64,000 nt of DNA from a virus (taxonomy: Duplodnaviria > Caudoviricetes), in IMG/VR virus record IMGVR_UViG_3300050336_000035, positions 1-64,000 of that record; one strand, 5' to 3'. Each line of letters opens with the position of its first letter. Within the stretch, counting starts at the first letter, position 1. The position numbers and the translations under genes were made by a program. Below, piece after piece: positions 24,657 through 55,942 of the stretch. The notes under the pieces were generated by a model. It was given only the letters and a program-made list of their open reading frames with translations. It was not told the origin of the DNA and ran no database searches.

Positions 24657-25532
24657 TTTTTGTTATAAATGTCTATTAATAAAAGCCACAACAAAAAAAA
24701 CATAGTAATATAGTTATTAATACTATGCAAATACGATTAATAAATTTATATCATACTATATTGATATTATTAGTATGTATAAATACACTACATAAAATTT
24801 TAAGATATATCATTATGTATCAAATAAAGTACAATGTATAATATACATACAAATGTATAAATATAAATGAGAATTTGACATTAAACAATAAAATAATATT
24901 AACCTTATCTGTAAGGCTCTAAAATCGTTTTTAAGCCATTAATAATAAAATAATATACTTATAAGGATATGTCCTCAATAATCAATCCTGATGGATTCGA
25001 CATTATTAGACATGCAAATTGCCTCCACTTTGGTATTAAAAACAGGGTTAAAAATGGGACAGCTCACCACTTATATAATAGTAAATATATATAATGCAGT
25101 AATATCAAGGCACACAAGGTTATAGTAATTATAAAATGTATAAAAGTGCATAGGATATAAAAATAAAAAGTATTGACAAAAAGGGATTTTAAGTATTATA
25201 TTTATAGTAAGATATAAACTTAAAGATGGTAAGGAGGACAAGATAAATGAAGCAGTGGGAGATAGACGATTTAATTAAGGATATTGCAGGAGGGAAAAAA
25301 GAATGTTAAGATTAAGGCATATAATAAAAGGTACAAAGAGGTTAAATGTAAAAAGTACATATATGGAAGTATACAAAGGTAATAAGTACATAGGAATAGC
25401 GTTATTTAGATAAGTTATCAAATAAGCATTTTATGTTGTTTTAAAAATATTATAAAAAACTATTTACATTTATATTAATATCAATTATAATATAAATATG
25501 ATAGTTAATAAATATTTCGGAGGTTGATTTAT

Positions 25533-25781
25533 ATGATAATTAATACTGGAGATATAGTAAAATGTTTCGGGCAGTTTAGAATGAAATTAACTCCATACTT
25601 AGTAAAAGATAAAGATAATAATATAATAAAAGATGAAAGTAAAGCACAAATTACAATGTATGATATAAGCCAAAAATTTGATATATTATGGAGTACTACA
25701 ATGAAATTAAATGAAGCTCATGGAGCGTTAACAATGTTTGAAATGATAGGTTATTATAATGCACCAATAAATGTAAATTAG
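25533..25781 (+). CDS. Hypothetical protein
   Basis: GGAGG RBS; terminator follows. Confidence 0.65.
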   Translation: MIINTGDIVKCFGQFRMKLTPYLVKDKDNNIIKDESKAQITMYDISQKFDILWSTTMKLNEAHGALTMFEMIGYYNAPINVN

Positions 25782-25800
25782 AGCTGAAAAGCTCTTTTTT
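25780..25800 (+). terminator. Intrinsic terminator
   Basis: AGAGC/GCTCT stem plus T-tract. Confidence 0.65.
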
Positions 25801-26323
25801 ATTAGAAGGAGGTTAAAACTTGAAACATATATTTAAAATAAAGTTGTTAAACGATAAAGAATTTACTATAGAATCAGATACTAATAGTTTAAACGATATA
25901 TCATTAAAAATAATACAAATATGCGTTGAAAATAATAGTCAAGTTATTAGCTTAAATGAATTAACGGCATCTCATAGAAATATAAAATAATAAAATGAAA
26001 GGAACATATCTTATGATAGAACAATTAAAAAATATTAAATCCGAATTAGAACAAATTGCAGATGAATTATATCAGGATGAAAACAATATTGTTATATTAG
26101 CACATTTAGAACATGCTATTAATGATATCAGAAAAGCTTTTATAATATTAGCGGTAAGAGATAAATAATCAATATAGAATATAACTTTTATTTGGTTATT
26201 AGAGAGCCTGACAAGGTTCTCTTTTTGTTTGTTCAAAATTATCATGAAAATATAAAAATAATTGTTGACGAATAATATAGTGAGGGTGTATAATTATATT
26301 AAGATTTAAAGGAGGTTGATGAC

Positions 26324-26740
26324 ATGAAAGCTTTAAAACTATTGGAAGATATGAAAAATAAGAAATATACTACTATAGATAATATACTTGATGCTGAAAC
26401 AGATTTTTTTAGTATCAACAGAAACCAAAAAAATGTTATTGAAAATATCATATACCAGCAATTAAAACCTTTTTATTTTAATCCTATAGCTTTAGGCACA
26501 CAATTAAAAACTGGTGACACTTGGAGCAGTAAGGCACATACTGAGCATTTTAGAACTTTTGAAGGTTATACTTTAAAACTTTATGGTAATACCTTTAAAA
26601 TCAAAGATGAATTAAAAGCAAAGGGTTATAAATATGACAGTACAGTTAAAGCATGGTATAAAACCATAGAAACAATTGAAAATTTAATATCTGATGTTGA
26701 AACATATAAAAGTTATTGTACGGACATAAAGATAAATTGA
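26324..26740 (+). CDS. Hypothetical protein
   Basis: AAGGAGG RBS; GNTFKIKDELKAKGYKYD...AWYK phage motif. Confidence 0.75.
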   Translation: MKALKLLEDMKNKKYTTIDNILDAETDFFSINRNQKNVIENIIYQQLKPFYFNPIALGTQLKTGDTWSSKAHTEHFRTFEGYTLKLYGNTFKIKDELKAKGYKYDSTVKAWYKTIETIENLISDVETYKSYCTDIKIN

Positions 26741-26912
26741 GGTTAGAAATAACCTCTTTTTTGACCAAATGCACATTTTATTTTATTTGGTTAATGTAAT
26801 TGAATAATAATATAAAAATAATATCAAAAATCTATTGCAATATGTTATTTTATGATTTATAATAAAGATAGTTAATACACAACTTGCTAGTAGCAAGGGA
26901 AAGCGTGAGACT

Positions 26913-27248
26913 ATGAAAGCTAAAATAGATAACAAAATTTTAAATGTCAGAATAATAAATGCAAATTACAATGAGTATGCAGTAGAATGTGAAATTTTAG
27001 AAGGTAATTTCAAGGGTGCATATACAATTGTTGAAAATACTGATTTAATCAAAGAAAAGAAAAATTTTCGTTATTATGTACAGAGAACACAAGAACCAGA
27101 TTTAAATGAAAGACGTAAAACAACTACAAAAAGAAAATGCGAAACTTTAGAAGAAGCAAAAAAAGTTAAAAGCAAATATGTTGACTGCAATCATAGTAAT
27201 ATTTATAGCTACAAGATTCTTGATAGAATTACAGGTGAGTATCTATAA
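26913..27248 (+). CDS. Hypothetical protein
   Basis: Promoter, leader hairpin, RBS. Confidence 0.7.
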   Translation: MKAKIDNKILNVRIINANYNEYAVECEILEGNFKGAYTIVENTDLIKEKKNFRYYVQRTQEPDLNERRKTTTKRKCETLEEAKKVKSKYVDCNHSNIYSYKILDRITGEYL

Positions 27249-27272
27249 AACGGCAGAGCCGTAAAGAAGGGA

Positions 27273-27506
27273 ATGTGTATCATGAAATTATCAAGAAAGA
27301 TTCAGTTAATACCTAGAATATTTATAAAAATAGTAACAAATAATAATTATTATATTTGTGATAGCTGTCATAAGTTACATAAAAGAAAAGGGAAAGAATT
27401 TGATTTAAATTCTAAATGGGCAATAACCGTAAATTATGAATGCTCGAACAAATCTATTAATAAAGCAAAAAACTTGATTATTGATTCAATATTTCAAAAG
27501 GTATAA
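27273..27506 (+). CDS. Hypothetical protein
   Basis: ORF ending just before an 18-bp site. Confidence 0.6.
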   Translation: MCIMKLSRKIQLIPRIFIKIVTNNNYYICDSCHKLHKRKGKEFDLNSKWAITVNYECSNKSINKAKNLIIDSIFQKV

Positions 27507-27540
27507 TGCTAATGCAATGAATACTTGATTTTATGTGGTT

Positions 27541-27547
27541 TGTCGAA
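27541..27547 (+). promoter_or_regulatory. Spo0A box (TGTCGAA) upstream of promoter
   Basis: TTTGTCGAA upstream of a TTGCAA...TATAAT promoter. Confidence 0.5.
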
Positions 27548-27644
27548 TTTTGCGAAATGTTTCTCTTGCAATTATTATATTAATATCATATAATGTTAAT
27601 ATAAATTAAAGAGCCGAACATAATTGGCAGAAAGCAGGTACATT

Positions 27645-27923: not shown

Positions 27924-28432
27924 AAACCAATAGAACTGGTATTTCATGTACTGTAATAATATGGTATATTTTATATATTTATTTTCCTTATAAAAATATC
28001 AATATAATTATTGACAGTATAATAAATAGTGTGCTATTATTAATTTATAAAATAATTATAGGAGGTTTTTATTATGACATTAAAGAATATATTAAACAGA
28101 ATGTGTGCAGTAATGACTGGAAAAGAATTTACAGAAAGGACTGGAGAAAGCTTATATAAAACTAATAAAACTATTACATTAGTAATAGGCGGTATAAATA
28201 AGACTTATCCAGTGGTTATTGATAATTATGAAAAATAAAAGTCCTTTTGATTCGGAGAAGTGTTTGGAATGTATATGGATGAGACAAGAAGAGCCTTTTC
28301 ATTGTCCTATATTTCATATAGATATTGATAATATAAACATAAAAAATTGTACAATTGGATTAATAAAAACATAGAAGGTTATATCTTCTATGTTTTTGCA
28401 ATTATAATTTAATTCAAGAAAGGAGGAATTGC

Positions 28433-29571: not shown

Positions 29572-29749
29572 GAAAAAACATAAAAGTTTAAATTGTCCTA
29601 TATGTAATAAACCATTAATTATATCAGAATCACACAATCAAGTTGCTTGTAGTGATATAAATTGTAAATTTAATAATAATATTGATATAGTTAATTATTG
29701 CATAAAATGACGATTTCATGGCTATTAATATAAGTTTGGAGGAATAATA

Positions 29750-30049: not shown

Positions 30050-30050
30050 A

Positions 30051-30242: not shown

Positions 30243-30515
30243 AAACATGACCAAAAACAAATTTCATGAACTAATTAAACCCAATAGCAGGAGCGTAAAC
30301 CCTGCTATTTTTATTTGTAGCTGATTTATTCTCCAATATGGTATAATATGACTATTGGATAATTTGAACGCTTAAAACGGCTTATAAATGTTTAAAAATA
30401 GTTTAAAAATTATTTTAATATCCTATTGCATTCTGAATTAATGTGTGTTAGAATTTATATTGTAATCAAGTTAAACATTACATACGGTACTAAGTACCGA
30501 GAAGGAGCGTATATT

Positions 30516-30698: not shown

Positions 30699-31027
30699 TG
30701 TTGATGGGTTCGCCCGTAGTGGCGAATTAAAACGCAAGTTACGTCCAAAGCCGTAACGGAATAGGAGAATAAAAAATTATGATTAAATATCAAGAAAAGA
30801 AAACAGGTAGAAAGTATTTTGTAGAGTCTTTAGAAGTTAATGATTTAGGTTTAATTGTATTAATACCAGTCAGAGGTGCTGAAGGTATTGCAGTAACTCC
30901 AGAATCACTAGAAAAACGATTTAAAAAATGTGACCAAAAGTAAATTCTATCAAAAGTATTGACAATTATTTTTATATCTATTACAATGTAGATAGTTAAT
31001 AAAATAAATCTAGCGGAGGTTATCAAG

Positions 31028-31605: not shown

Positions 31606-31664
31606 TTCAATAAATAGCAAGTTTTATTGTAATGTTAAAATAATTTAATAGGAGTGTTGCAAAC

Positions 31665-31943: not shown

Positions 31944-32838
31944 AGCAAATGAAATCCTTAATTCATAAATTAAATTTTAGGAGGTTAAAAAAAATGAAAT
32001 CTTATAGTGTGAATAGTAGATTAATCTGGAAACATGAAAGTGGTTATATAGTTGAAGCAACACAAGGACAAATATTTAAAACCTTAAAGGATGCAAAACA
32101 AGCTGCTAAAACTCTACCATGGGAATAATAAAATTACCTAGTTTGCTGATATGAAGCAGACTACAAGCGTTATAATCTTAGCTTGTAAATATAAAAGATG
32201 TTGGAATAAAAAATACATAATAGGAGCGTGAGCAGATATGAGGAAATTACAAAGAAATTTAAATGATTTGCTTAATAAAATCTATCTGGAACAGGCAAAA
32301 GAAATACTAAACAAATATAATATTAAGGTAAGTAATAAATTATAGGACGGCTTAAAACCGTTCTATTTTCTTTTTATAGCCTTTTATTTAGGTCTGGTAT
32401 ATAATTACATTGTCGGGCATGGTAGAGCCTTAAAACGGATTTTAGAGCATCATTGTGATTATATATTATTTTTATATTTTATATTGACTTTTGGTAAACA
32501 CTTATGTTACTATTATATTGTGATTAATAGATAATATTTCTAAGCCAATTCTGGCAGATAAAATTTAATAATCTAGTGCAATGCTAGACAGTTTAGTTAA
32601 AATTATTACATAAGGCTTTGAGCCGATAGAATAGGAGTGTTGAAAATGAAGGAATGTACAATAATGTTTAGTGTAATGGTCAATAACTGGGTAATAGCAG
32701 AAGATGGACATTTTAACTATAAGGAAAATTTTGAGACAGCGGAACAGGCAGTAATTTCTGCTTATAGAAAAGGTTATACAACTATAAAAATTGAAACGAA
32801 ATAGTCTGTTTATAACATGTTTGGAGGTGTAAAACAAC

Positions 32839-33223: not shown

Positions 33224-33451
33224 TATAAGTAAATAAAGAGGTATTTACTATGAATAAAGAAATTAAAAAGCTGATACTTGAAGGGGTTTTTATTACAGTA
33301 TGAACTATAATATGTATAATAGAATTTAATACATAGAATTCTGCTTTCATTTGGTTTTTTTAAATTTCTTGCGTGATATTAAAATAATAGTTGACAGCCA
33401 TTATTCTATCATGTTATAATGAATTATAAAATAATTTAAGGAGTGATTTAA

Positions 33452-34259: not shown

Positions 34260-34316
34260 TAAGAGGGTGAAATCCCTCTTTTGGTTTTGATGAAATCAGC
34301 CTTTTATGTTGAAATT

Positions 34317-34323
34317 TGTCGAA
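34317..34323 (+). promoter_or_regulatory. Spo0A box upstream of promoter
   Basis: TTTGTCGAA about 10 bp upstream of the -35. Confidence 0.55.
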
Positions 34324-34397
34324 CTGTTTTTCTTTACAAATTATATTTATAATGCTATAATTTATTCATAAAATAAATTAATAAAGGAGTAATTAAT

Positions 34398-34661: not shown

Positions 34662-34690
34662 TGATAAAAGAAGGCTTTTATGTCATTTTT

Positions 34691-34735
34691 TGTCGAACAA
34701 TTTTTCTTGACATATTATATTTATAATGTTATACT
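34691..34735 (+). promoter_or_regulatory. Spo0A box plus sigmaA promoter
   Basis: TGTCGAA 34691-34697; TTGACA 34707, 17-bp spacer, TATACT 34730. Confidence 0.65.
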
Positions 34736-37431: not shown

Positions 37432-38223
37432 ATGAATATAATTAAGATATCAGAACAAGTTTTTGAGACTATACAAAACAATGATATATTACCAATAGAA
37501 AAAGAACATTTACCATATAACACAATATGCATTGCGTTTCCTTATTCTTTTTTACGCTCATCCGATGAAATGATAGATGATGCTATTAAAGAATTAAAAG
37601 TAAAAGCCAATCAACAGGGTATAGGATTAAAGAAAATGCTAGAAGATAGAAAGCAAGAAATTGAGGAACAACAAAGAAAGATAATTAATTACTGTAACAG
37701 TGACTTACATGTAATATTCAATATTAATAATTTTGAAATAACAGTAAAACACAGTAGACCGCAAATAATAGGAGTATCGGAGCAAGTTTTATTTCATGGT
37801 GTAAAGGCTTTTGAATTTGTGCCAATGATTAAAGTAAATCAAATGAGTGATAATGGTATATGGTTTTATAATACTATGGTTAAATTGGTATCTGGTGTAA
37901 TATATGCTATTAATAATATGAATATCGAGGTAACAGAGACTACAGAAAATATCAAGTCAAACAGTAACAGACCAACAAAAACCAATAATGAGAAAATACG
38001 TTATATTTCTAATATTAAATATCTTAATTCTACTATAACAGATGGACAAAGTACAAGCCATGAAAAACGTATATTCAATATGGAGGCATGGGAAGTTCGA
38101 GGACATTGGAGACATTATCAAAACGGAAGTAAAATTTGGGTTAATGCTTATGTCAAAGGAGATAAGGAAAAGCTACGTAACAGCGATAATATATATAAGC
38201 TGAATAAAATTGATATTGACTAG
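37432..38223 (+). CDS. Hypothetical protein with WEVRGHWR motif
   Basis: GGAGG RBS; C-terminal VRGHWRHY...KIWV..YVKG. Confidence 0.75.
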   Translation: MNIIKISEQVFETIQNNDILPIEKEHLPYNTICIAFPYSFLRSSDEMIDDAIKELKVKANQQGIGLKKMLEDRKQEIEEQQRKIINYCNSDLHVIFNINNFEITVKHSRPQIIGVSEQVLFHGVKAFEFVPMIKVNQMSDNGIWFYNTMVKLVSGVIYAINNMNIEVTETTENIKSNSNRPTKTNNEKIRYISNIKYLNSTITDGQSTSHEKRIFNMEAWEVRGHWRHYQNGSKIWVNAYVKGDKEKLRNSDNIYKLNKIDID

Positions 38224-38698
38224 GTAACAGCCGATATTTAATGATGCCGAGGTAACAGCACTAAATTTTTATTCCAAGGGTAACAGCGAGGTGAAATTAT
38301 ATGAAGCAATATTCACAGAAAGATATTGAAAATTTGATAAATCAGTATAACAGAACTGACAAGCAGATTATAAAAAAGAATACAGTTAGAATATTATCAG
38401 AATCAGGATATCAATATACAGATATAGCAAACAGGACAGGTATAGGAGTACAAACCCTTTACCAATATAACAAAGAGTATGTAACAAATTACCCTAACTT
38501 TTTAACAGCTTTGAAGATTGCTAATTTTTTGGAAATTGATATAACAGAATTCATTTTGAATAGCAAGGAAAATTTAATGATTAGAGGGTAACAGCACTTG
38601 ATTTTTATTGCATGAGATTTTTATAATTCTCTAGGTAACAGCAATGGTTTTGAGTTACGGAGGGTAACAGCAAGACTTTTAAATCACTAAGGTAACAG
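38223..38698 (+). repeat. GGTAACAG(C) direct-repeat array, about 28-bp period, flanking an HTH gene
   Basis: Copies at 38223, 38251, 38279, 38587, 38634, 38663, 38691. Confidence 0.9.
38301..38591 (+). CDS. XRE-family HTH protein
   Basis: YTDIANRTGIGVQTLYQY...PNFLTALKIANFLEIDITEF. Confidence 0.78.
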   Translation: MKQYSQKDIENLINQYNRTDKQIIKKNTVRILSESGYQYTDIANRTGIGVQTLYQYNKEYVTNYPNFLTALKIANFLEIDITEFILNSKENLMIRG

Positions 38699-38855
38699 AA
38701 CTTAAAAAATGTTTCAAGAAATATTTATGATTAGTATTGACAGACTATTATAACAGGTATATAATAGAATTATGGAATGTAAATTAATTATATTAATAAC
38801 AGAAAACAGAATGAAAGTTGAATTTGGTCATATTATGAAAGGATGGTAAAGTATT

Positions 38856-39182: not shown

Positions 39183-39248
39183 TTAAAATGAATATTACAA
39201 TTTATAACATATTTAATTGCTACAAAGTAGCAGAAAGAGAGTATTATT

Positions 39249-39497: not shown

Positions 39498-39549
39498 TTG
39501 TTATAGAAGGTGGATTTGGTCACATAACAAATTTAAGGAGTGCTTAACA

Positions 39550-39849
39550 ATGGAAATACCGAAATATATAATAGAACTGCTTGAACGTTCAAAATATTCA
39601 TATGATAAAAGTCTTTCCAAGAATGAAGATTATGCAGTAGGCTATACAATAGAAATACACAAAAGAACAGAATATGCATATGTATCTACATTAAATGAAG
39701 AAATTGAAAAATTACAAAAATTTGTAATTAAGAATAACAGTGACTGCAAAATATTATCTATACCTAAAGAGACACATTACAATGACCAGTATGCAGTAAT
39801 TACAATCTTTGACCCGATAATGAAACATTTAGAACAGTATATAAAATAA
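39550..39849 (+). CDS. Hypothetical protein
   Basis: Between sites 39503 and 39841. Confidence 0.7.
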   Translation: MEIPKYIIELLERSKYSYDKSLSKNEDYAVGYTIEIHKRTEYAYVSTLNEEIEKLQKFVIKNNSDCKILSIPKETHYNDQYAVITIFDPIMKHLEQYIK

Positions 39850-39883
39850 GATTTTTATTATATTAATAAAGGAGATTAAAAAT

Positions 39884-40156: not shown

Positions 40157-40200
40157 TTGCATAAAACAAGGTATTCATCCAGAAATTAAGGAGGTTTAAA

Positions 40201-40425: not shown

Positions 40426-40540
40426 TAACATGATGAAAGTATAATTTCATTCAAAAATTATTTTAATATTTTATATTGACTTTATTAAAATAATTTGATA
40501 TTATATAAACATAAAATAATTCTAAAGGAGAGATTACATA

Positions 40541-41071: not shown

Positions 41072-41101
41072 ATAATATAAGTAAGTAAGGAAGGTGAAGA
41101 T

Positions 41102-42118: not shown

Positions 42119-43250
42119 TATAGATATTAAAAAAATAAAACCTCATCCTAGAAATAAAGAAATTTATGGTGAGGAAAATATTAATGAACTTGCAGAACAA
42201 ATTATAAAAAGCAACTGGATAAATCCTATTCTTATTAATGATGATAATATAATTATTAGTGGACATAGACGTTATCTAGCATGTTTAATAATTGGTTTAT
42301 TAGAAATTCCTTGTGAACGTATTACATTTAAAGATAAAAACGATGAACTTGAAAGGCTTCTTCTTGAGAATCAATATAGAGAAAAAACAATCTATCAAAA
42401 AATGAAAGAATCAGAAGTTTGGCAAGAGATTGAACCAGAATTAGCTAAAAAAAGGAGATTAGCGAATTTAAAACAAAATTCCGATAAGGACAATTGTCCT
42501 ATTCGGCAAGATGGTCAAGTTCGCGATATTATTGCTGAGAAAGTAGGATTGGGTTCTGGACGTACATATGAAAGAGCAATGCCTGCTGTAAAGAAAATAG
42601 ATGAATTAAAATCACAAGGAAAAGAAAAAGATGCTGAATTTCTTACAGTTGTTTTAAATGGAAGTGTAAGAGGGGCAAAGGATTTGTCTGAAATAGAATC
42701 ATTTGATGAAATATCTAATGAGATTAAAGAAAAAGTAATTAATAAGGAAATTCCTGTGATAAATGCAGTAAAACAAATACGAAATGACTTAGGAATAATA
42801 ACTGATAATAAAAAACAAACAATAAAAAAGAATAGTGAAAAAATCAAGAAGACGAAAATTTGTAATAAATGTGGGGAAGAAAAATCAATATTAGAATTTT
42901 ATGAAGGTAAAAATTATTGTAGAGATTGTCAAAATTCTAATAGAACAAGACAGTTTAAAGATGTTCATGGTAATATTATTCCTACAGACAAAGAAAAATT
43001 AAAAGGAATAGATTTAGATGCTATAGAAGCTGATATAAAAGATACAAATAAAAGCGTTAAAAATAATGATTATGACACTATTACTATGGAAATACAAGCA
43101 AATATAAGTATTTTTATGAACTCAATAAGAAGAATTGTAGAAAGTGAAGATTCTTATGAGGAAATGGATATCTGTAATAAAAATAAGTTATTAGATGCTA
43201 TTAATATGGTGGAAGACACTATTAATATAATAAAAAATAAATTAATTTAA
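42108..43250 (+). CDS. ParB/Srx N-terminal domain protein with HTH and Zn finger
   Basis: PHPRN..IYG...IISGHRRY...EN; IAEKVGLGSGRTYER; CNKC...CRDC. Confidence 0.82.
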   Translation: MSFNIDIKKIKPHPRNKEIYGEENINELAEQIIKSNWINPILINDDNIIISGHRRYLACLIIGLLEIPCERITFKDKNDELERLLLENQYREKTIYQKMKESEVWQEIEPELAKKRRLANLKQNSDKDNCPIRQDGQVRDIIAEKVGLGSGRTYERAMPAVKKIDELKSQGKEKDAEFLTVVLNGSVRGAKDLSEIESFDEISNEIKEKVINKEIPVINAVKQIRNDLGIITDNKKQTIKKNSEKIKKTKICNKCGEEKSILEFYEGKNYCRDCQNSNRTRQFKDVHGNIIPTDKEKLKGIDLDAIEADIKDTNKSVKNNDYDTITMEIQANISIFMNSIRRIVESEDSYEEMDICNKNKLLDAINMVEDTINIIKNKLI

Positions 43251-43265
43251 AAGGAGATTACAATT

Positions 43266-44084
43266 ATGACAATGAGTAGTAATGTAGTAAAATTTAATGA
43301 AATGAATTTAGGAACAACAGTACAGGTTCAACCGATTTCAACAAAGAATTTAACTTCTGGTGCAAAGTATCAAAGAACAATAGACCATAAAAAGGTTGAG
43401 AAGATAGTGAGTACTTATGACCCTCATAAGGTTGGAGTTATTAAAGTAAGTTATAGAGACGATAATTACTGGGTATATGACGGTCAGCACAGATTAATGG
43501 CACTCAAGACAATAAATCATGGTAAAGATTGTATGGTACTATGTGAAGTACATTATGGGCTTACATATGAGGACGAGGCAAGATTATTTGCTGAACAATA
43601 TGATGGTGCTACAAAAGTAGATATAGTCTATCAAATGGGAGCATTACTAGAAGCAAAAGATGAGGACGTTGTTAAAATAAAAGATATTGTTGAATCTACT
43701 GGATTGCAAATACCGTTTACCAAGTCTAAAGGAAATGACAAAATAGTTGCTGTTAGTAAAATAAGAACTATTTATAAAGATTTACAAGAAGACGGATTAA
43801 GAAGAATATTAACTCTTATTAAACAAACATGGAATGGAACATCTTCATCACTTGATAAGTACGTATTAGGTGGTATGCATCAATTCTTAAAGACTTATAA
43901 GACAGAAATAAGTGACATTACATTTATAAAGAATCTAAGTAAGATTGAACCACTTATGATTAAAAGAGTGGGAGATAGTGATATGAGTGCAAAGGGAGAT
44001 TTAAAATATGCAAAAGTAATTCTTGATTATTATAATAAGGGGTTAACATCAAAAAGTAGACTAGAATATAACTTTAAAGGCTAA
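43266..44084 (+). CDS. DUF6551-like ParB-fold (DGQHR) protein
   Basis: YQR...V.KIV...VSYR...VYDGQHRL...GLTYEDEARLF. Confidence 0.78.
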   Translation: MTMSSNVVKFNEMNLGTTVQVQPISTKNLTSGAKYQRTIDHKKVEKIVSTYDPHKVGVIKVSYRDDNYWVYDGQHRLMALKTINHGKDCMVLCEVHYGLTYEDEARLFAEQYDGATKVDIVYQMGALLEAKDEDVVKIKDIVESTGLQIPFTKSKGNDKIVAVSKIRTIYKDLQEDGLRRILTLIKQTWNGTSSSLDKYVLGGMHQFLKTYKTEISDITFIKNLSKIEPLMIKRVGDSDMSAKGDLKYAKVILDYYNKGLTSKSRLEYNFKG

Positions 44085-44132: not shown

Positions 44133-44225
44133 GTTATAAATATAATTTTTAATGTTGACTTTATACATTTAATTTGTTATACTATATTTAAAGAAATTAA
44201 TATTACATATTGAAAGGGTGATTTT

Positions 44226-44579
44226 ATGACAGGTGGGATTGTAGCAATACGAAATATAGAAAACAACAAAGTACATATTGGTAGAACATGTAGCTTAATA
44301 AATACAAGAAACAATTTTGAAAGACATGTAAGAGGATTAAAATATCCTCCTAATCAAGATATTAGAGAAGATTGGAATAAATATGGTAGTAAGAAATTTA
44401 TACTTGAGATTGTAGAAGTTATAGAAGATTATACTTCTTCAAAAGGTGAAAGCAGAAAGAAATATTGGATAAGTAAGATTAATCCTGATATGCTATATAA
44501 CATTAAAGGTGTAATATATAGTGAATCAGAAGTTAATCTTCCACAATTCAATTTTGATGAAAGCATATATGCTTATTAA
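44226..44579 (+). CDS. Divergent GIY-YIG-like protein
   Basis: GGIVAIRN..NNKVHIG...DWNKYG...F..EIVE; GIY/YIG motifs degenerate. Confidence 0.6.
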   Translation: MTGGIVAIRNIENNKVHIGRTCSLINTRNNFERHVRGLKYPPNQDIREDWNKYGSKKFILEIVEVIEDYTSSKGESRKKYWISKINPDMLYNIKGVIYSESEVNLPQFNFDESIYAY

Positions 44580-45068
44580 TATAATTATATGATAGAACGA
44601 GTATTTTAATTAGTATTTTGTTATTAAAATAATTTATAATAACTATTGCATATTAGATTATTATTTGGTATAATATAGTAAAGAGATGAAAGGTGGTACA
44701 TAAATATGAAACTTTGCAAATTGTGTAGTAAAGATATAAGTGAAAGACATCATTCAGCAAAATATTGTGTAGAATGTGCTATAAAGAAGAATTTAGAAGA
44801 TACATATAATAGAAATTGTAAAGACTGTAAAACCAGATATTGTAAATAGAATTATGTTATGAAAGAACAGATTTATTCAAATATTTCTATTTGATTTGTG
44901 GTATCTCTAATTATTTAGGCTTAACCATAAGCATATAAATCAATGCTTAATGCTATTATAAATTCTTAATATAATGATTGTCAACTATTTGCTGAAATTT
45001 TTACCATCTTTAATAAAAGTACATAATACAGTATAATAGAAGCAATTAATTAGAGAGGTGGTAAATTA

Positions 45069-45269
45069 ATGGCAGTTAAAAATAGATTAAAAGAAATTAT
45101 AGATGAGCGAGGTATAAAGCAAGTCTGGCTTGCTGAACAAGTAGGTATATCATATAAAACACTATCTAATATAATAGGTGGAAGATATAACACTAGTTTA
45201 GATGTAGCATTAAAAATAGCAGATGTTTTAAACGTAAAGGTCGATGATATTTTTTATTTAGAAAAATAA
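45069..45269 (+). CDS. XRE/Cro-family HTH regulator
   Basis: NRLKEIIDERGIKQVWLAEQVGIS...SLDVALKIADVLNVKVDDIF. Confidence 0.9.
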   Translation: MAVKNRLKEIIDERGIKQVWLAEQVGISYKTLSNIIGGRYNTSLDVALKIADVLNVKVDDIFYLEK

Positions 45270-45304
45270 TGCTTAAATTTAGATATTATTTTTCATAAAA
45301 ACTC

Positions 45305-45352
45305 TTGACATGCAAGATAATTTCCTTTATACTTAAATTACAGGTTGCAACC
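45305..45352 (+). promoter_or_regulatory. sigmaA promoter with GGTTGCAACC palindrome near +1
   Basis: TTGACA-17-TATACT; palindrome at 45343-45352. Confidence 0.7.
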
Positions 45353-45381
45353 AAGTAGTTTAGTGTAAAGGAGAATTACAT

Positions 45382-45789
45382 ATGTATGATGAGTTACTAG
45401 AACAATTGAAAGTATTAGATAAATTTAATAAAGGCAAAGTATCAATCACCTTAAACTTTGGTAATTCCTGTATAACCTACACTTATATGAATTTCAGTTG
45501 GGATGAAGATGCAGGATACTTAGTCATGGGAGATAATGACACAATTCACGAAGATGCTACTAGTATAGATTTTGATGATATTTTAGAAGTTGATGAGATG
45601 AATGATGATTTAGTTGAATTGACACTGGAGAATGGAAAAGTAGTTATTATATTAGATACCGAATATTCACTATGCTTTAAATGCGGAGAAAAAAGACCTG
45701 TGTTCTATATGAGGGCTTATGGTGAAAATTCAGAAGAATATGATATAAGAGTATGTCAGGATTGTTTTAATAAGATGATTGAATGTTAA
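45382..45789 (+). CDS. Hypothetical protein with C-terminal Zn finger
   Basis: CFKC...CQDC; first gene of the TnpB-like transcript. Confidence 0.7.
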   Translation: MYDELLEQLKVLDKFNKGKVSITLNFGNSCITYTYMNFSWDEDAGYLVMGDNDTIHEDATSIDFDDILEVDEMNDDLVELTLENGKVVIILDTEYSLCFKCGEKRPVFYMRAYGENSEEYDIRVCQDCFNKMIEC

Positions 45790-45814
45790 ATATGAACGGA
45801 AAGGAGGAGTAATT

Positions 45815-47215
45815 ATGACTGTTGAAATGAGAACTATTAAATTTTATTCTAATAATAAGACAACTAAAGAAGATTTTGATAAAGGTATTAAATTTTTAAC
45901 TGAATGCCAGGAAGTTCAAAATAAGTTATTGGAATATTATTGGAACAATTTCAGTTTAGTAATTGATTCTAAAAGTTGGATTGATTTCTATAACACAAGA
46001 GTTATGATTACTGCTCCTTCTATTAAGTTTCAACACTATCAACAAATACTTCATATGGTTTATGGTACACTTAAATCTTTACAGGAGAATATTATTCAGA
46101 AAATTCACTTTAAATTTGAAGATAAATTACAACAACGTATTTATAACTATTGTAGTAAGTTTATTTTTGATTGGAATAGGCTTGAAATATATGTTAATAA
46201 ACAAGTTAAAGAGTATAAAAAGAAAGATAAGAAATACTATGAGTTTTTATTAGAAGTTAAAAACGTAATAGATAATGAACAATCTTTTTTGATGTTACAG
46301 CAGGATATAGAAAATAAGTTTTCGGAAATTAAAAATAAAATAAATTTACCACAAAAGAAAACTAAACAGATAATTGCAACTACTCTTCATACAATAGACA
46401 TTGAAAAATATGATAATTATTGGATATTTATAATTGATACTAATCATTTTATAAGTAAAAAGAAAATGGATAAATTCAAAATAGTAATTGATATATCAGA
46501 TTATCATAGAAATGTACTTGACAAATATTGTTTAAAGAATACTTTTACTATAAAACTAAATAATTATGGCAGGATTGAAATTACAGGAGCGTACGAAAAA
46601 GAAATAGATTATCCAGAATCTAACCCTAAATATATTATTGGAATTGATATAGGCTTAAAGAATTTAATTGTATCGTCTGATGGTGAATTTATTGAACAAA
46701 ATAAAACTATTGTAGAGAAAACTCAAAAGCTAATTAAAAATCAAGCTAATAGACAAAGCTTAGAAGCTCATATGAAAAAGAAACTTGATGATGAAAATTT
46801 TACTTTACCTGATAAAAACTATATGAAGAAACAAAATAAGCTTAGTAGATTCGTACAATGTGATAATCGTTACAAGGTTAAACAATTTCTAAAAGGTAGG
46901 GAAGACACTCATATCATTATGGAAGATTTACATTTAAATGATGCTAAGACATATAGCAAAGAAGTAAATTATATGCTGAGAAGAATGAGGATACAAGGCA
47001 TTAAGAATGATTTATTGAAGTACACAAAAGAGATGGGGATTAAAACAACACAAATAAATCCTAGATATACAAGTATTGATTGTCCAATTTGCGGAAATAG
47101 GGATAAATTAAATAGGCAGACACAGGAAACATTCAAATGCACTAAATGTGGTCATACAGATAATGCAGACCATAATGCTAGTGTGAATATTGAAAATAGG
47201 TATTTAAAGGTATAA
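45815..47215 (+). CDS. tnpB: TnpB/Cas12f-like RuvC nuclease (466 aa), no TnpA
   Basis: Start after AAAGGAGG; RuvC GIDIG, MEDL, NADHNA; CPIC/CTKC Zn ribbon. Confidence 0.85.
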   Translation: MTVEMRTIKFYSNNKTTKEDFDKGIKFLTECQEVQNKLLEYYWNNFSLVIDSKSWIDFYNTRVMITAPSIKFQHYQQILHMVYGTLKSLQENIIQKIHFKFEDKLQQRIYNYCSKFIFDWNRLEIYVNKQVKEYKKKDKKYYEFLLEVKNVIDNEQSFLMLQQDIENKFSEIKNKINLPQKKTKQIIATTLHTIDIEKYDNYWIFIIDTNHFISKKKMDKFKIVIDISDYHRNVLDKYCLKNTFTIKLNNYGRIEITGAYEKEIDYPESNPKYIIGIDIGLKNLIVSSDGEFIEQNKTIVEKTQKLIKNQANRQSLEAHMKKKLDDENFTLPDKNYMKKQNKLSRFVQCDNRYKVKQFLKGREDTHIIMEDLHLNDAKTYSKEVNYMLRRMRIQGIKNDLLKYTKEMGIKTTQINPRYTSIDCPICGNRDKLNRQTQETFKCTKCGHTDNADHNASVNIENRYLKV

Positions 47216-47856
47216 AATATATAAAAAGGCTTTGATTTAATGCCTGTGGTTAAGCGTACTTTAGTACAGATACCATTAATTGCTTTAAAAAGTGAATGAA
47301 TCAGTAGTTTTATTTCGTTAAAATAGTTAAAAGCAACCCATTGTGGTTGCAAAACACAATAGCAACCAAATATTATTGCGGAGGTGAATAATAATGAATA
47401 TCAATGAAAATAACTTGAAAAACTATGTTGGATTTTCTGATGAGCAATGGAAAGAAGCGAGACCTTTAATAATAGGTATAGCTAACAAATCAAATAAAAA
47501 TTATAGTGAAATATTAAAGATATTATTAGAAATTGCAAAAGCAATTAAAGGCGAAGAGATGTAAAAAGTTATTGATATTAATATAATAGTATGTTATAAT
47601 TGTATTATAAAATAAATTGAAAGAAGGTATTACATATGAAGGACGTTAAAAGTAGTTCATTAAAACCATTAGAAATTTGCGAATATGCTAGTACTTGTGA
47701 ACATACATGTAATGGTAAGAATGAACAGAGGGATTGTACCTTTAGTTGTGGATTAAGACGAGGTTTATTAATGTGTGACGGTTATGATATTAAATTTGGA
47801 TTACAATAGAAGAAAGGATTTATTCACTAATAAAATAAATTGGGAGGTACATAATA

Positions 47857-48420: not shown

Positions 48421-48465
48421 TACACAATGAAAGATAGATTTGGTAACGAAAGGAGAATAAAATAA

Positions 48466-48903: not shown

Positions 48904-49211
48904 ACATCAATATAAATACATGGGATTTTTAAATTATGAGGAAGGTACATTTCATACATTTTATTGTAAGAATTGTAACTATTTAAAATTAAGGAAAACA
49001 TTATAGAAACGATATTTTATCATGTTTGGAGGATAAGGAATGTTAGCTACTGAAGGAATTAAAATTGAAGGAAATAAAGTTATTATTAAGGACGAATTAA
49101 CTAAAACAGCTTATAGAGTTGATTTTGATTACTTGGTGGATATTATTCGTACTAAGGTTGCTAAAAATAAATTAGAGCCAACTATAGAAAAACAGAAAGG
49201 AATTCAATGGT

Positions 49212-49397
49212 ATGATTAATATGGATTTCGTAAAAAATGCAAATAAAGCAATTTGCATTGATAATACTGATACTCAATATTTAACATTAAATAAAAAGTA
49301 TTATGTACAAGAAACTTGTAATGGTAATTGCTTAACATATAATGATGAAGGAGTATTACATAATTATTGCATTGATAGATTTAAATTATTAGCTTAA
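49212..49397 (+). CDS. Hypothetical protein
   Basis: Stop codon overlaps site 49394. Confidence 0.6.
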   Translation: MINMDFVKNANKAICIDNTDTQYLTLNKKYYVQETCNGNCLTYNDEGVLHNYCIDRFKLLA

Positions 49398-49439
49398 AAT
49401 GGTTATTTGGTATTAATATAATTATAGGAGGAAAATAAC

Positions 49440-50123: not shown

Positions 50124-50171
50124 TAGTGTTATGAAATGTGAAATTTATGAACAATTGGGAGGTATAGAATT

Positions 50172-50441
50172 ATGTTAGTTACTAATAATATAAAAGTTGG
50201 AGACAAAATGTATTTTAAAACAAGTAGAAATATAGGAACAATAAAAAATATTGAAATAGGAGAATGGGAGTCTCCTCATGGTTCATGTAGCATAATAGAA
50301 TATATTAAAAATTTTGAAGTAGATATAGATGGCAAAATCTTTAATATTAATCCAGATGATAGAGATATAATGTTTAAAAAAGATTTGGAATATGAAATAT
50401 CTAAACTTGAAAAATATAAAAAGATACTTGAAAAAATGTGA
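50172..50441 (+). CDS. Hypothetical protein
   Basis: Between sites 50131 and 50441. Confidence 0.65.
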   Translation: MLVTNNIKVGDKMYFKTSRNIGTIKNIEIGEWESPHGSCSIIEYIKNFEVDIDGKIFNINPDDRDIMFKKDLEYEISKLEKYKKILEKM

Positions 50442-50520
50442 CAAAAGACGGAATTTATCATGAAATTTACAAAGGTTTATGATATACTATTTCTATCTCA
50501 ATTATCAAGGAGTTAGTCCT

Positions 50521-50877: not shown

Positions 50878-51120
50878 ATGACTTATGATGAAGTTGAAAA
50901 GACAATTAATATCCTTAGAAATAAAGGAATGTTAATAGATATTAATCTTCCAATTAAAACATTAAAGTTGATAGCAGAAGCATATGATATTGGGATTGAA
51001 AGTATTAAAAAAGGAAATGATGGATATATTGATTTCGGTGGCGTAATTGGTATCAAACCAATTAAAATAGTTAATAAAAATGATAAATTTGGATATGTTG
51101 AAGTTAAAATAGAAGAGTGA
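50878..51120 (+). CDS. Hypothetical protein
   Basis: Start moved to MTYD. Confidence 0.6.
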   Translation: MTYDEVEKTINILRNKGMLIDINLPIKTLKLIAEAYDIGIESIKKGNDGYIDFGGVIGIKPIKIVNKNDKFGYVEVKIEE

Positions 51121-51509
51121 ATTTATTAACAAAATATGTGAGGTTTATTATGGATAATGAAATTAATATATATGATATAAAAGATTCTGCTGTATTTAAA
51201 TATAGACAACATGCAATCAAAAATGCAAATATTGATATTGACACTTTACAACGAAAATTAACAGCATTGATATTAAACGCCCAATTTAAAAAACAACTTA
51301 CAACTACTAGATGGTTATATAGATTTGGAGCATTCCAAATGTATACCAATGAAGATATTTTTGAAATAGAAGACATAAGTTGGATTGATGATACTCATGA
51401 AGGTTATCGTATAACAAATGAAATGCAAGCTAATTTACGGAATACATATATTCAATTAGGATTAAATAGTAAAGGAACAAGTATGTACGAAAATGTTATA
51501 AATAAGTAA
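51117..51509 (+). CDS. Hypothetical protein
   Basis: Coupled ORF. Confidence 0.6.
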   Translation: MNLLTKYVRFIMDNEINIYDIKDSAVFKYRQHAIKNANIDIDTLQRKLTALILNAQFKKQLTTTRWLYRFGAFQMYTNEDIFEIEDISWIDDTHEGYRITNEMQANLRNTYIQLGLNSKGTSMYENVINK

Positions 51510-51537: not shown

Positions 51538-51741
51538 ATGAAAAAATACAAAACTATTACAATAGAAAAATATAATTGGTCTGGTTCTGAAATTCTCATA
51601 GTAGATTTTCAAACTAAAGAAGAAAAGGTATTAAAGGATACAGATTTAAAATCAGTTATAAATGATTTAAATCAAGATGGTTACGTTTTATGTGGTATTA
51701 ATGGTAGAGAATATTATATGACTAAAGAAATTAGCGGATAG
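51538..51741 (+). CDS. Hypothetical protein
   Basis: GAGGTG RBS; stop codon inside site 51738. Confidence 0.6.
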   Translation: MKKYKTITIEKYNWSGSEILIVDFQTKEEKVLKDTDLKSVINDLNQDGYVLCGINGREYYMTKEISG

Positions 51742-51786
51742 AAGTGCAGTTTGGTCACAAAGTATAATTATTTGGAGGATAATATT

Positions 51787-51936: not shown

Positions 51937-51974
51937 TACCAATCGAAGATTTTGTCATGAGATAGGAGTTATAT

Positions 51975-52268: not shown

Positions 52269-52306
52269 GATAAAACTTTGATTTTATTTAACTATAGAGG
52301 AAAAAT

Positions 52307-52756
52307 ATGAAACCTGAAAAATGTTTAGAAGATGGTTGTAATAGTAAATCAGGTATGAAAGGTTATTGTGACAAACATTACATTAGACTTACAACTATAA
52401 TTAATAATCTTACTGATAGTGAAGTGGAATTAAAAAACAAATTAATTCATAAGCTTAATATACTTGATGAAATGTATCCTAAAAAAGAAAAGAAACCAAT
52501 ACTACATAATATAAGAGAAAAATATTCTGCATTTTGTTGTGTAGATGGATGTAATAGACCCCATCATTCAAAAGGATATTGCGAAAGACATTCAAGGCAA
52601 ATTGAAAAATATGGGAGATTAACTCCTGAACTTGAAAGTAAAACATTAAGACCATTGAAATTATGCAGTGTAGAAGGTTGTAATAATATACATTTAGCAA
52701 AAGGTTATTGCAATAAGCACTATATAGAATTTAGGAGATATGGGAAAATATTATAA
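52307..52756 (+). CDS. Protein with three C-x3-GC-x6-KG-x-C-x2-H Zn-finger repeats
   Basis: CLEDGC..KGYCDKH, CVDGC..KGYCERH, CSVEGC..KGYCNKH. Confidence 0.7.
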   Translation: MKPEKCLEDGCNSKSGMKGYCDKHYIRLTTIINNLTDSEVELKNKLIHKLNILDEMYPKKEKKPILHNIREKYSAFCCVDGCNRPHHSKGYCERHSRQIEKYGRLTPELESKTLRPLKLCSVEGCNNIHLAKGYCNKHYIEFRRYGKIL

Positions 52757-52816
52757 ATTACTCATTTTATAGGGTATAATCAGTCTAATGTGTACCAAAT
52801 GAAAGGAAATGATATT

Positions 52817-53017: not shown

Positions 53018-53096
53018 TTCATAGATGTAGTTATTTCGCCATTTGAATATACTGTGAATATTATAATTATTAATATAATAGGAGTGTGATATTATA

Positions 53097-54058: not shown

Positions 54059-54097
54059 AGTATTTAGTGTTAATATTCATTAAAGGAGATATATATT

Positions 54098-54316
54098 ATG
54101 AATAAATTTATGGTAAAAGTAACATTAAAACAAACAAACTTATCTGGTTATACATGGATTAATAATAAACCAAGTTGGGTAGATGCATATGTAGAAGTTG
54201 ACGCAGAAACATTAAACGATGCTATTGAATTAGTAAAAGAAACATATGGTGATGAAAATAAATATTGGATTAAATCATCTGAAAGTTATATGATGTTACC
54301 TCCAATTATAAAATAA
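54098..54316 (+). CDS. Hypothetical protein
   Basis: AAGGAG RBS. Confidence 0.65.
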   Translation: MNKFMVKVTLKQTNLSGYTWINNKPSWVDAYVEVDAETLNDAIELVKETYGDENKYWIKSSESYMMLPPIIK

Positions 54317-54364
54317 TAACACAAAATACTTGATTCATTTAAAAAAGAAAGGATATGAATTAAC

Positions 54365-54550
54365 ATGAAAACAGTTACAGTTATACCTGCAAAGAAAATT
54401 ACTTGGGAAAGAATTTATTCCGCTTTAGGTTTTTGGATGTATTATTCTTATGACAAAGATGGAAACAGAATTAAAACAATATATTGGTGTTGTTTGCCTT
54501 TTAAGTTTTTTAGAAAGTTTGATTTGTTTTCATACAAATGTAATCTATAA
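54365..54550 (+). CDS. Hypothetical protein
   Basis: Between sites 54321 and 54555. Confidence 0.55.
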   Translation: MKTVTVIPAKKITWERIYSALGFWMYYSYDKDGNRIKTIYWCCLPFKFFRKFDLFSYKCNL

Positions 54551-54610
54551 TATTACAGAATTCTGATTTCATAAAGATACCAAATAAATATTAATGAAAG
54601 GAGGTGTAAA

Positions 54611-55810
54611 ATGTTATATAAAACAATGATAGTTCCTGTTAATTGTAATAAATCAGATTATAATTATCTTATGCAATGTAATAAGTATTCAGGAATAGTT
54701 TGGAATACTATTGTAAAAATGGATAAAGAAAACAGAGAAAAGTATGGTAAGTCTTTAACTCGTTCAGAGTTACAACATAGTATGAAGAAAAGTGTACCAA
54801 TAATTATGGCTATAAGTATAAATTATGTAATATTGAAGTATATAACTGCTAGAGATGCTATGTTTAGGTCTATGAAAGCGAAGCATAAAAATAGTAATAC
54901 TGTTAGATTACCATATAAAGAAAAGAAATTTTATAATACAATTTGGAGTTATCAAAATTTTAAGATAAATATATCTAAAAATTATATTACACTAGGGAAA
55001 CCAATACTAGTAAATGATAATGGTAAAAATCGAAAACAAAAACCAATTAAATGTAATATAAAAAATATTCCAAACAATATAGTAGAGATTGAATTGATTT
55101 ATCGTAATGGTTTAAAATTAGCCATTAAATATAAAGAAGAAAATAATAATGTTTTAATTCAATCCAATAATGAAGCAGCTATAGACCTTGGTGAAATACA
55201 TAGTATTACTTCTATTGATAGTAATGGTAATGCAATTATAATCACTGGTAGAAAGATTAGAGCTATTAAACAATTGAGAAATAAAGAGTTAGCTAAACTA
55301 AAAAGTCGTAGAAGTAAATGTGCTAAAAGGAGTAAGCAGTATAAGAAATATAGTAAGGCAATTTATAATCTCAAATATAATACTGACAATAGGATATTAG
55401 ATTGTGTTCATAAGATTACAAAGCTATATTTAGATTATTGTTTACAAAATAATATTTCAAAAGTATACTATGGTGACTTAGACAATTGTACAAGAAGTAC
55501 AAAAGAAAATAATCAAGGCAATACAATGGTAAGACAAAAACTAAGTCAATGGTGTTACGGACTAATTATGTTACAACTACAAAATAAACTATCAAGATAT
55601 GGAATTGAATTAGTAAAAGTTAAAGAATATTATACTTCAAAGAAATGTCCTATTTGCAGTAAGTTAAATAAACCTAATGGTAGAAATTATGAATGTGAGT
55701 GTGGTTATAAAATGCATAGAGATGTCAATGGAGCTATAAATATTCTTAATGATAACAGTAATTGGTATGTAGATAGATATACTAATCTAAAGTATCTACG
55801 TATAGCGTAA
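54611..55810 (+). CDS. tnpB: TnpB family nuclease with rearranged RuvC-II, no TnpA
   Basis: AAIDLG, YYGDL (G at canonical E), VKEYYTSKKCPIC, HRDVNGAINIL. Confidence 0.88.
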   Translation: MLYKTMIVPVNCNKSDYNYLMQCNKYSGIVWNTIVKMDKENREKYGKSLTRSELQHSMKKSVPIIMAISINYVILKYITARDAMFRSMKAKHKNSNTVRLPYKEKKFYNTIWSYQNFKINISKNYITLGKPILVNDNGKNRKQKPIKCNIKNIPNNIVEIELIYRNGLKLAIKYKEENNNVLIQSNNEAAIDLGEIHSITSIDSNGNAIIITGRKIRAIKQLRNKELAKLKSRRSKCAKRSKQYKKYSKAIYNLKYNTDNRILDCVHKITKLYLDYCLQNNISKVYYGDLDNCTRSTKENNQGNTMVRQKLSQWCYGLIMLQLQNKLSRYGIELVKVKEYYTSKKCPICSKLNKPNGRNYECECGYKMHRDVNGAINILNDNSNWYVDRYTNLKYLRIA

Positions 55811-55900
55811 GCTGAAGTAGTAGATGTGAAGGTTACTCACCTAGTTAATGACTGGTAGCCTATAGATTTTATATAGGAAAGGTTAGATAAAAATATTTGA
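55790..55900 (+). ncRNA. Putative TnpB omega RNA
   Basis: Hairpins overlapping the tnpB 3' end: ATCTAC/GTAGAT, GTGA/TCAC, CCTATA/TATAGG. Confidence 0.45.
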
Positions 55901-55942
55901 CTTGTGACCAAAATCCTATTTTATTCTGATTTTGAGGTACAT

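Follow-up and report, generated by a model that had tools for sequence, protein, structure and literature searches.

A two-fold symmetric element repeated at gene ends of a distant SPbeta-like phage and its relatives, possibly an array of operators

Introduction

The window examined in this work, the first 64 kb of a 167,493-bp IMG/VR virus record (IMGVR_UViG_3300050336_000035; approximately 26% G+C), carries a short repeated element, hereafter the dyad, in which two inverted arms flank a spacer of constant length and which recurs at the ends of genes; positions preceded by G000 are those of the whole record. Genes lie on the minus strand at 1-21 kb and 129-167 kb and on the plus strand between about 21.7 and 126 kb, and the phage encodes a DnaE-type polymerase, an NAD ligase, a RecD2-like helicase and an anaerobic NrdD. 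The minus-strand gene at 11213-13927 encodes a 904-aa homologue of YonO, without a Pfam family, which displays 26% identity to YonO of SPbeta and 51% to its counterpart in the related phage G001, and which is identified by this homology as the phage's own single-chain RNA polymerase. The lysogeny block comprises AgrB, a helix-turn-helix (HTH)-MazF protein, a DndB/DGQHR protein (60560-61900) and a recombinase-fold protein resembling MrpR/YopR (61900-62937), the last two being the same gene pair, in the same order, as yopQ-yopR of SPbeta. Based on the YonO homologue and this gene pair, we identify the virus as a distant SPbeta-like phage; the DnaE proteins of the window phage and of SPbeta share just 23% identity, and the host is probably an anaerobic Firmicute.

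SPbeta and phi3T are model phages for arbitrium signalling, whose repression system is only partly understood. The dyad is an orphan element found in tens of copies per genome at the junctions of early genes, in phages as different as those of Bacillus and the AT-rich ones of anaerobes, and its proposed link with the orphan repressor SroE (YopQ) is directly testable in B. subtilis. In addition, it marks points of gene exchange in very large temperate phages, a matter of relevance to the assembly of their accessory gene sets. The literature examined, which excluded the SPbeta genome paper (Lazarevic et al. 1999) and the work on the sro operon with its SroE/SroF sites (Brady et al. 2023), contained no description of the dyad.

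Results

All 36 copies listed in an initial annotation of the window were found at their positions (Table 1). The element had been described there as two 5-bp arms around an 8-bp spacer (5-N8-5), and the inverted arms stand, but not their width; the true unit is 6-N6-6 (AYVRAA-N6-TTYBRT), because columns 5 and 12, on which no selection had been made, are conserved as well (A in 30 and T in 29 of the 36 copies, respectively). When the 167-kb genome was scanned with no hand-picked sites, strict matches at a spacing of 6 numbered 61, of which 47 are intergenic, whereas each of the remaining spacings between 0 and 20 gave 3-18; direct-repeat and everted controls displayed no spike. In the intergenic DNA of the window 21 matches were obtained at spacing 6 and 0-2 at spacings 3-9, while 15 sites lie wholly inside intergenic segments compared with 0.69 +/- 0.83 (maximum 4) in 500 first-order Markov resamplings. 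Of the 25 strict window sites, 16 overlap a stop codon or begin at most 15 nt after it (-18 to +15 nt). The dyad is a real, two-fold symmetric, repeated element.

The array had been placed at 25.4-55.9 kb. Copies do occupy that interval, but the array does not end there and runs on for approximately 70 kb, to 124 kb; with a position matrix, about 77 intergenic copies were detected in the interval from 25 to 124 kb. Three members of the original list are weak (30933, 39188 and 49394) and six good copies had been overlooked (9898, 21306, 44210, 44859, 47296 and 51109). A census of 9-mers in intergenic DNA returned only ribosome-binding sites, -35 boxes and the repeats of TnpB ends described below.

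In an alignment oriented by the genes, base frequencies are mirror-symmetric to about +/-15 nt, including the ends of the spacer (T at position 1, A at position 6). The parts follow one another as an A-run, CATG/GTGA, ATRAAA, N6, TTTYAT, CATG/TCAC and a T-run, giving for the window phage the consensus AAAA-CATG-ATRAAA-N6-TTTYAT-CATG-TTTT, whose arms have drifted to several variants with the spacing intact. A direction had been assigned to the sites from spacers ending in AT, and this is not sustained: the T is part of the right arm, the A has its mirror image in the T of spacer position 1 (34 and 31 of 61, respectively), and a symmetric motif is not directional. No covariation was detected between the arms (4.49 pairs of 6 observed, 4.57 in the null, z about -1), so the symmetry reflects a twice-read consensus and not base pairing, as would suit a DNA-binding protein that acts as a dimer but not folded sites of attC type or an RNA structure. 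A hairpin or RNA-structure reading of the dyad was rejected, since the arms do not covary and form no stable hairpin.

Most copies lie about 10 nt or less from a stop codon, even where the intergenic spacer is long. In long spacers the dyad stands beside the upstream stop, before or after a canonical terminator and mostly upstream of the next sigma-A-type promoter, and in compact junctions dyads are found 20-40 nt upstream of start codons. As initially annotated, dyads punctuate gene or module boundaries, and the def-ParB (40541-44084) and agr/sro-like (56-64 kb) blocks contain none. The dyads lie at the gene and module ends of the early arm, which is transcribed by the host RNA polymerase, and are absent from the lysogeny operon. 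Among ten small proteins adjoining dyads or promoters, none passed the curated Pfam cutoff, and a single sub-threshold match was obtained (DUF5623, E 0.009).

Relatives were found by DnaE-based searches of viral contigs, in which neither an accessory protein nor the MrpR-like protein retrieved any when used as query; segments of the window had no match in the GenBank phage collection by megablast or blastn. In G001, a complete record, TAAAA-N6-TTTTA occurs 60 times, compared with 6.6 at other spacings, nearly always at gene ends, and in about one quarter of the copies a TAA stop codon forms part of the left arm. The provirus G002 carries the generic pattern 59 times, compared with 4-10 at other spacings. 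The Bacillus phage SPbeta has 34 copies of TAAAA-N6-TTTTA versus 1.7, with the consensus TCTAGA-TAAAA-N6-TTTTA-TCTAGA, located mostly at gene ends of the early region (69-133 kb), and 72 prophage loci found through YonO in Bacillus, Paenibacillus, Lachnospiraceae and others gave a pooled count of 65 at spacing 6 versus about 22. These comparisons of sequence show a dyad common to SPbeta-like phages that encode a YonO-type RNA polymerase and conserved across very distant relatives. Between SPbeta and phi3T, seven dyads lie well inside homology blocks and have 0 changes in arms and spacers, too few for a comparison of substitution rates with the flanks. The genome of Bacillus rugosus contains 72 matches compared with 40 in the control, and among the matches listed they are densest on one contig (C66), probably that of the prophage. 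A host regulon was rejected on this distribution, and the dyad appears to belong to the phage.

The dyads had also been linked to gene gain and loss, and mosaic joints are indeed tied to them: homology between SPbeta and phi3T breaks at 8 of 19 strict-dyad junctions and at 12 of 117 others (odds ratio 6.4, p=0.0015; P=0.0025 against a length-weighted intergenic null). A weaker association was observed between SPbeta and Goe14 (6 of 19 dyad junctions with a break and 19 of 117 others; odds ratio 2.4, p=0.12), a comparison that is not independent of that with phi3T. Breaks in relatives had been expected inside the spacer; they occur at either arm or are scattered from -22 to +25 nt, and no dyads were found at the ends of the documented phi3T/phi3Ts gene replacement. 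L081, a 154-kb relative, shares two genes of the array, and three of the four block ends fall in dyads (47806, 49394 and 50131); as the junctions measure only about 45 nt, an end would land in a dyad by chance about 50% of the time, and these ends are weak evidence. In laboratory hybrids, 15 of 16 joints were located in ordinary homology regions (bioRxiv 10.1101/2020.05.06.055103).

Within the genome, the likeness among three TnpB modules stops exactly at the arm/spacer edge of the flanking dyads, so the outermost 6 nt of each module end are one dyad half-site. One gene is also duplicated between dyads (G000 78497-79312 and 122653-123456), and neither target-site duplications nor shared spacers were found at the module ends. 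Dyads mark module borders and joints and their link to gene exchange is real, in a pattern that does not look like precise site-specific recombination. The modules (OrfB_IS605/Cas12f-like; window 44859-47313, G000 79397-82195 and G000 106003-108573) have the inverted ends TCACTTTTTAAAAGTGA plus ATGAAT, and solo ends, with one decayed copy, are present near G000 64633/65060, 83562, 103220, 121543 and 122603, also at dyads. The TnpB elements seem to target or mimic the dyads.

When the product of 60560-61900 was folded as two copies, a symmetric homodimer with a score of 0.43 was obtained, compared with 0.00 for the best of three controls; among proteins solved as same-chain pairs 20 of 30 attain this score, and among those solved as single chains 1 of 23. 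At least 60% of the contacts agree between runs, and the predicted local distance difference test (pLDDT) value of the partner is at least 80. What the model supports is a predicted dimer, and it is no evidence of DNA binding. Genes resembling yopQ were found in SPbeta, phi3T, Goe14, G001, G002, G004 and L081.

Table 1. Dyads and associated genes in the 64-kb window. The score is that of the position weight matrix (PWM), and the strand of the sites is given as a point; distances to stop codons are in nt.
Feature	Position	Strand	PWM score	Remarks
Dyad	3979..3996	.	19.0	minus-strand gene block; stop 2 nt away
Dyad	4750..4767	.	14.6	stop 5 nt away
Dyad, overlooked earlier	9898..9915	.	15.6	gene end overlapped
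Dyad	15794..15811	.	16.9	stop overlapped
Dyad, overlooked earlier	21306..21323	.	14.5	intergenic
Dyad	25417..25434	.	18.0	promoter 25463 downstream
Dyad	26174..26191	.	13.7	stop + 6; terminator follows
Dyad	26764..26781	.	15.9	terminator just before, promoter after
Dyad	27517..27534	.	17.9	stop + 11
Dyad	27930..27947	.	15.1	stop + 7
Dyad	29702..29719	.	17.8	stop overlapped
Dyad	30250..30267	.	16.5	stop + 8; terminator follows
Dyad, weak	30933..30950	.	11.7	stop overlapped
Dyad	31610..31627	.	13.0	stop + 5
Dyad	31949..31966	.	13.7	stop + 6
Dyad	33333..33350	.	13.8	promoter 33391 downstream
Dyad	34290..34307	.	17.4	terminator before; -35 box 25 nt downstream
Dyad	34664..34681	.	16.9	stop + 3; -35 box 25 nt downstream
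Dyad	38811..38828	.	16.4	between promoter 38737 and gene 38856
Dyad, weak	39188..39205	.	10.2	stop + 6
Dyad	39503..39520	.	17.2	stop + 6
Dyad	39841..39858	.	13.4	stop overlapped
Dyad	40161..40178	.	15.3	stop + 5
Dyad, def-ParB left border	40433..40450	.	16.8	stop + 8; -35 box 25 nt downstream
Dyad, def-ParB right border, overlooked earlier	44210..44227	.	15.1	
Dyad	44592..44609	.	16.6	stop + 13
Dyad, TnpB module 1 left border, overlooked earlier	44859..44876	.	15.4	
Dyad, TnpB module 1 right border, overlooked earlier	47296..47313	.	15.0	inter-module homology ends at arm/spacer edge
Dyad	47806..47823	.	15.9	stop overlapped; L081 homology ends at left arm/spacer
Dyad	48427..48444	.	15.2	stop + 7
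Dyad	49003..49020	.	18.5	start codon 20 nt downstream
Dyad, weak	49394..49411	.	12.4	L081 homology starts at left arm, spacer identical
Dyad	50131..50148	.	15.4	L081 homology ends 3 nt past right arm
Dyad	50441..50458	.	19.5	stop abutted
Dyad, overlooked earlier	51109..51126	.	15.4	at gene overlap
Dyad	51738..51755	.	12.9	stop overlapped
Dyad	51938..51955	.	13.7	stop + 2
Dyad	52270..52287	.	14.1	stop + 2
Dyad	52753..52770	.	14.8	stop overlapped
Dyad	54321..54338	.	13.4	stop + 5
Dyad	54555..54572	.	16.1	stop + 5
Dyad	55907..55924	.	19.2	follows TnpB gene 54611-55810
DndB/DGQHR (ParB-fold) protein, SPbeta YopQ/SroE homologue; candidate binder	60560..61900	+		Pfam DndB E 2.9e-11; 27% identity to YopQ
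MrpR/YopR/SroF-like recombinase-fold protein	61900..62937	+		Pfam MrpR_N_CB and MrpR_C_cat; PDB 8a0a E 1.5e-13
Tyrosine-recombinase catalytic domain, 210 aa, without core-binding domain	19806..20438	-		Pfam Phage_integrase E 2.8e-23

Discussion

The strict 6-bp spacing and the symmetry of the dyad are conserved at 23% DnaE identity, which argues for recognition by a protein. We tentatively hypothesize that the dyads are a dispersed array of operators for a phage-encoded dimer, most likely SroE/YopQ-like, acting as stoperator-like roadblocks on the early arm and with gene shuffling as a by-product, a reading that we regard as quite possible, if somewhat short of probable. One subunit of a homodimer encoded by the phage would recognize each half-site, the putative binder being, by analogy with its family, the DndB/ParB-fold homologue of YopQ/SroE. 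Dimers bound at about 80 junctions would stop read-through between units and keep the early arm silent while the regulator is present, and exchanges between related phages would tend to resolve at dyads, because these are the only sequence common to unrelated neighbouring genes, leaving a cassette-like look as a by-product.

A precedent for such an arrangement is found in the stoperators of cluster A mycobacteriophages (L5, Bxb1), at which binding of the immunity repressor halts the elongating RNA polymerase (PMC9283540). Like the dyads, stoperators are spread over the phage genome in dozens of copies in short intergenic spaces and often touch start or stop codons (PMC9283540); they are, however, asymmetric 13-bp sites kept in one orientation to transcription and bound by a monomeric repressor, whereas the dyads are symmetric 6-N6-6 sites and only predicted to be roadblocks. 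The second precedent is the DndB operator of the dnd operon, in which, as in the dyad, short inverted arms flank a free spacer. Its binder is of the DndB/DGQHR family, a member of which is encoded here next to the MrpR homologue. DndB of Salmonella binds TACG-N10-CGTA palindromes (PMC4507180); that operator comprises two copies at one promoter with a 10-bp spacer, in contrast to about 80 dispersed dyads with a 6-bp spacer and a candidate binder. The conserved core gene yopQ is among those that the dormant prophage transcribes (bioRxiv 10.1101/2021.11.22.469490), and SroE has been called a second repressor, required for lysogeny to be established and as yet without a clear place in the model of induction (bioRxiv 10.1101/2025.11.27.690993).

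Several observations weigh against an operator array bound by this protein. Deletion of yopQ in SPbeta results in translucent growth only, without the prophage being fully induced (bioRxiv 10.1101/2021.11.22.469490), and the proposed assignment of the binder is a family analogy in which the known DndB site has a 10-bp spacer instead of 6. Six genomes compared for a DndB-like gene and for the height of the spike show no clear relation: G003 and G005 displayed a weak spike and no detectable DndB-like gene, both records being incomplete, and G004 has two DndB-like genes and a weak spike. The copy at 38811 sits downstream of a promoter, and the spacers, distinct in all 61 strict matches, contain 39-45% G+C compared with 24% in intergenic DNA, which a simple operator model does not predict. 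Other candidate binders encoded by the phage are the MrpR-like protein, a homologue of SPbeta YomM (G000 151492-152646) and a XerC-like protein (G000 128246-129154). A binder resembling phage HU/TF1 was rejected, a Bac_DNA_binding gene being present only in G001 among four relatives, and YonR was set aside, since phi3T-type phages reportedly have no YonR yet carry dyads.

An alternative that we consider unlikely holds that the dyads are recombination joints of integron or pdif type, at which a putative tyrosine recombinase would pair dyads and swap or capture single genes, the 6-bp spacer being both the crossover and the address of the slot. Should the dyads be targets of a recombinase, phages would possess a gene-exchange system of a novel type. 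With arms of 11-15 bp and a 6-bp spacer, the dyad matches tyrosine-recombinase core sites in geometry, and four genes with a Phage_integrase domain are present besides the MrpR-like one, including the XerC-like gene and the YomM-like gene, the latter conserved in G001, G002 and SPbeta. The TnpB modules that end at arm/spacer edges, the gene duplicated between dyads, the enrichment of breaks at dyad junctions, the three L081 block ends and the distinct, GC-richer spacers may also be read in this way. Nevertheless, breaks fall at either arm and not in the spacer, the enrichment is not significant with Goe14, the phi3T/phi3Ts replacement ends without dyads, the laboratory hybrids joined almost always in ordinary homology, and the length of the junctions and the module ends count against it as described above.

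Integron attC sites, too, follow directly on the stops of cassette-like genes, but they are folded single strands of 57-141 bp, whereas dyads are unpaired and measure 18-30 bp; integrons possess an IntI/attI/Pc platform, and none is present here, nor are the breaks confined to the spacer. The array has many sigma-A-type promoters and terminators of its own and no attI-like head was seen. Thus the integron-like capture put forward in the initial annotation is not upheld, given the lack of covariation and hairpins, the short sites, the differing spacers, the scattered breaks, the weak association with Goe14 and the phi3T/phi3Ts ends. The recombinase at 19806-20438, named there as an intact enzyme that might serve the array, does keep the catalytic R, HxxR, H and Y in an alignment to XerA, but consists of the catalytic domain only and has a homologue in just one of four relatives; it matches IntI4 weakly (E 5.5e-4) and its gene is far from the array. 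The 11-6-11 geometry of pdif/dif sites is shared by the dyad, with its spacing of exactly 6 and arms of 11-15 bp, but in the pdif modules of plasmids the XerC arm differs from the XerD arm and the host Xer proteins are used, while the arms of the dyad are equivalent, all its spacers differ and its excess appears not to be a host-wide feature.

A variant of this scheme, which we judge improbable, would have a recombinase-fold protein, putatively the YomM-like protein, the XerC-like protein or a partner of the MrpR-like one, pair dyads with the same core in co-infecting relatives and exchange the gene between them, the distinct and GC-enriched spacers preventing deletions within a genome; such slot-by-slot exchange would be distinct from integrons.

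It is likewise doubtful that the dyads are operators of the MrpR/SroF-like repressor encoded at 61900-62937, bound by two head-to-head monomers. This alternative was raised in the initial annotation, and the idea of an operator seems of the right kind, the protein probably wrong. The product is clearly homologous to MrpR, inverted arms separated by 6-8 bp are a natural target of recombinase folds, repressors of MrpR type have several sites across the phage genome, and two copies of the dyad hexamer occur in the phi3T SroF box (published strand TTTTAT, complement ATAAAA). The regulon of MrpR (YopR, SroF) thus resembles the dyads in belonging to the same phage lineage and in using a repeated operator, and its repressor, from the sro operon, has its homologue in the window. 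However, chromatin affinity purification sequencing (ChAP-seq) of SPbeta MrpR gave 10 peaks, all of them SPBRE sites at 10 promoters (PMC10516654), and SPBRE (CAAATACAAAWAATATGTATATAAT), which we located in SPbeta at exactly those ten genes, differs from the dyad. The box to which SroF of phi3T binds is asymmetric, measures 26 bp and is occupied by a monomer (bioRxiv 10.1101/2025.11.27.690993). Known sites of these repressors number about 10 per genome and overlap promoters, while dyads number from 34 to about 80 and lie at gene ends; an identity of the dyad with SPBRE is ruled out, as sequence, copy number and promoter overlap all differ.

We attach little probability to the proposal that dyads are passive linkers with no dedicated binder, kept for homologous or microhomology-driven swapping of modules, a role suggested for the promoter-early stem-loops (PeSLs) in T4-type phages (PMC2839356). 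Besides this precedent, the enrichment of breaks at dyad junctions and their scatter around the sites are in accordance with it, and PeSLs also recur between small non-essential genes in plastic regions where indels and replacements end (PMC2839356). On the other hand, 16-30 bp of degenerate AT-rich DNA is a poor substrate for homologous recombination, the retention of strict spacing and two-fold symmetry among distant phages points to recognition by a protein, and the arms of the window phage have diversified with no loss of spacing; moreover, a PeSL is made of a strong sigma-70 promoter and a terminator stem-loop, and the dyad contains neither, both occurring separately beside it.

Finally, although the dyads of compact junctions precede start codons by 20-40 nt and the phage encodes its own YonO-like polymerase, phage-specific promoters or terminators read directly by RNA polymerase are very unlikely, as in long spacers the dyad hugs the upstream stop beside canonical terminators and sigma-A-type promoters, the element is symmetric with no stable hairpin, a sigma-70 family gene is found in none of four genomes, excluding a phage sigma factor as reader, and YonO of SPbeta starts the late operon from one promoter with only 37 late genes dependent on it (PMC5467207), which rules out a YonO promoter.

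Additional features of the window and its relatives

In SPbeta, eight near-copies of the phi3T SroF box (AGAATAAAAATAAAATTA, gene strand) are located at 73654, 90632, 113678, 119404, 120654, 128330, 129175 and 132761, just upstream of a ribosome-binding site where examined; two of them abut a dyad, and SPbeta MrpR uses another box.

The operon at 40541-44084 encodes a peptide deformylase, a GmrSD_N (DUF262) protein, a ParB_N protein and a DUF6551 protein, and is bordered by the dyads at 40433 and 44210 with none within. The 'direct terminal repeat' of the record (G000 1-127 and 167367-167493) is an exact 127-bp overlap, a length typical of a circular assembly closing on itself, and may not be a true terminal repeat. 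At 38223-38780, at least six copies of GGTAACAGC (RGGTAACAGM) surround a small gene (38301-38591) and immediately precede the strong promoter 38737; these repeats are a family separate from the dyads and could be iterons or sites of a regulator. Boxes of the type TTTGTCGAA / TGTCGA repeat directly upstream of several sigma-A-type promoters (27535-27560, 34310-34330 and 34685-34700, and also 23380-23440 and 59990-60090). They look like Spo0A boxes (TGTCGAA), and if they are, the host would be a spore former and some phage promoters would be Spo0A-responsive.

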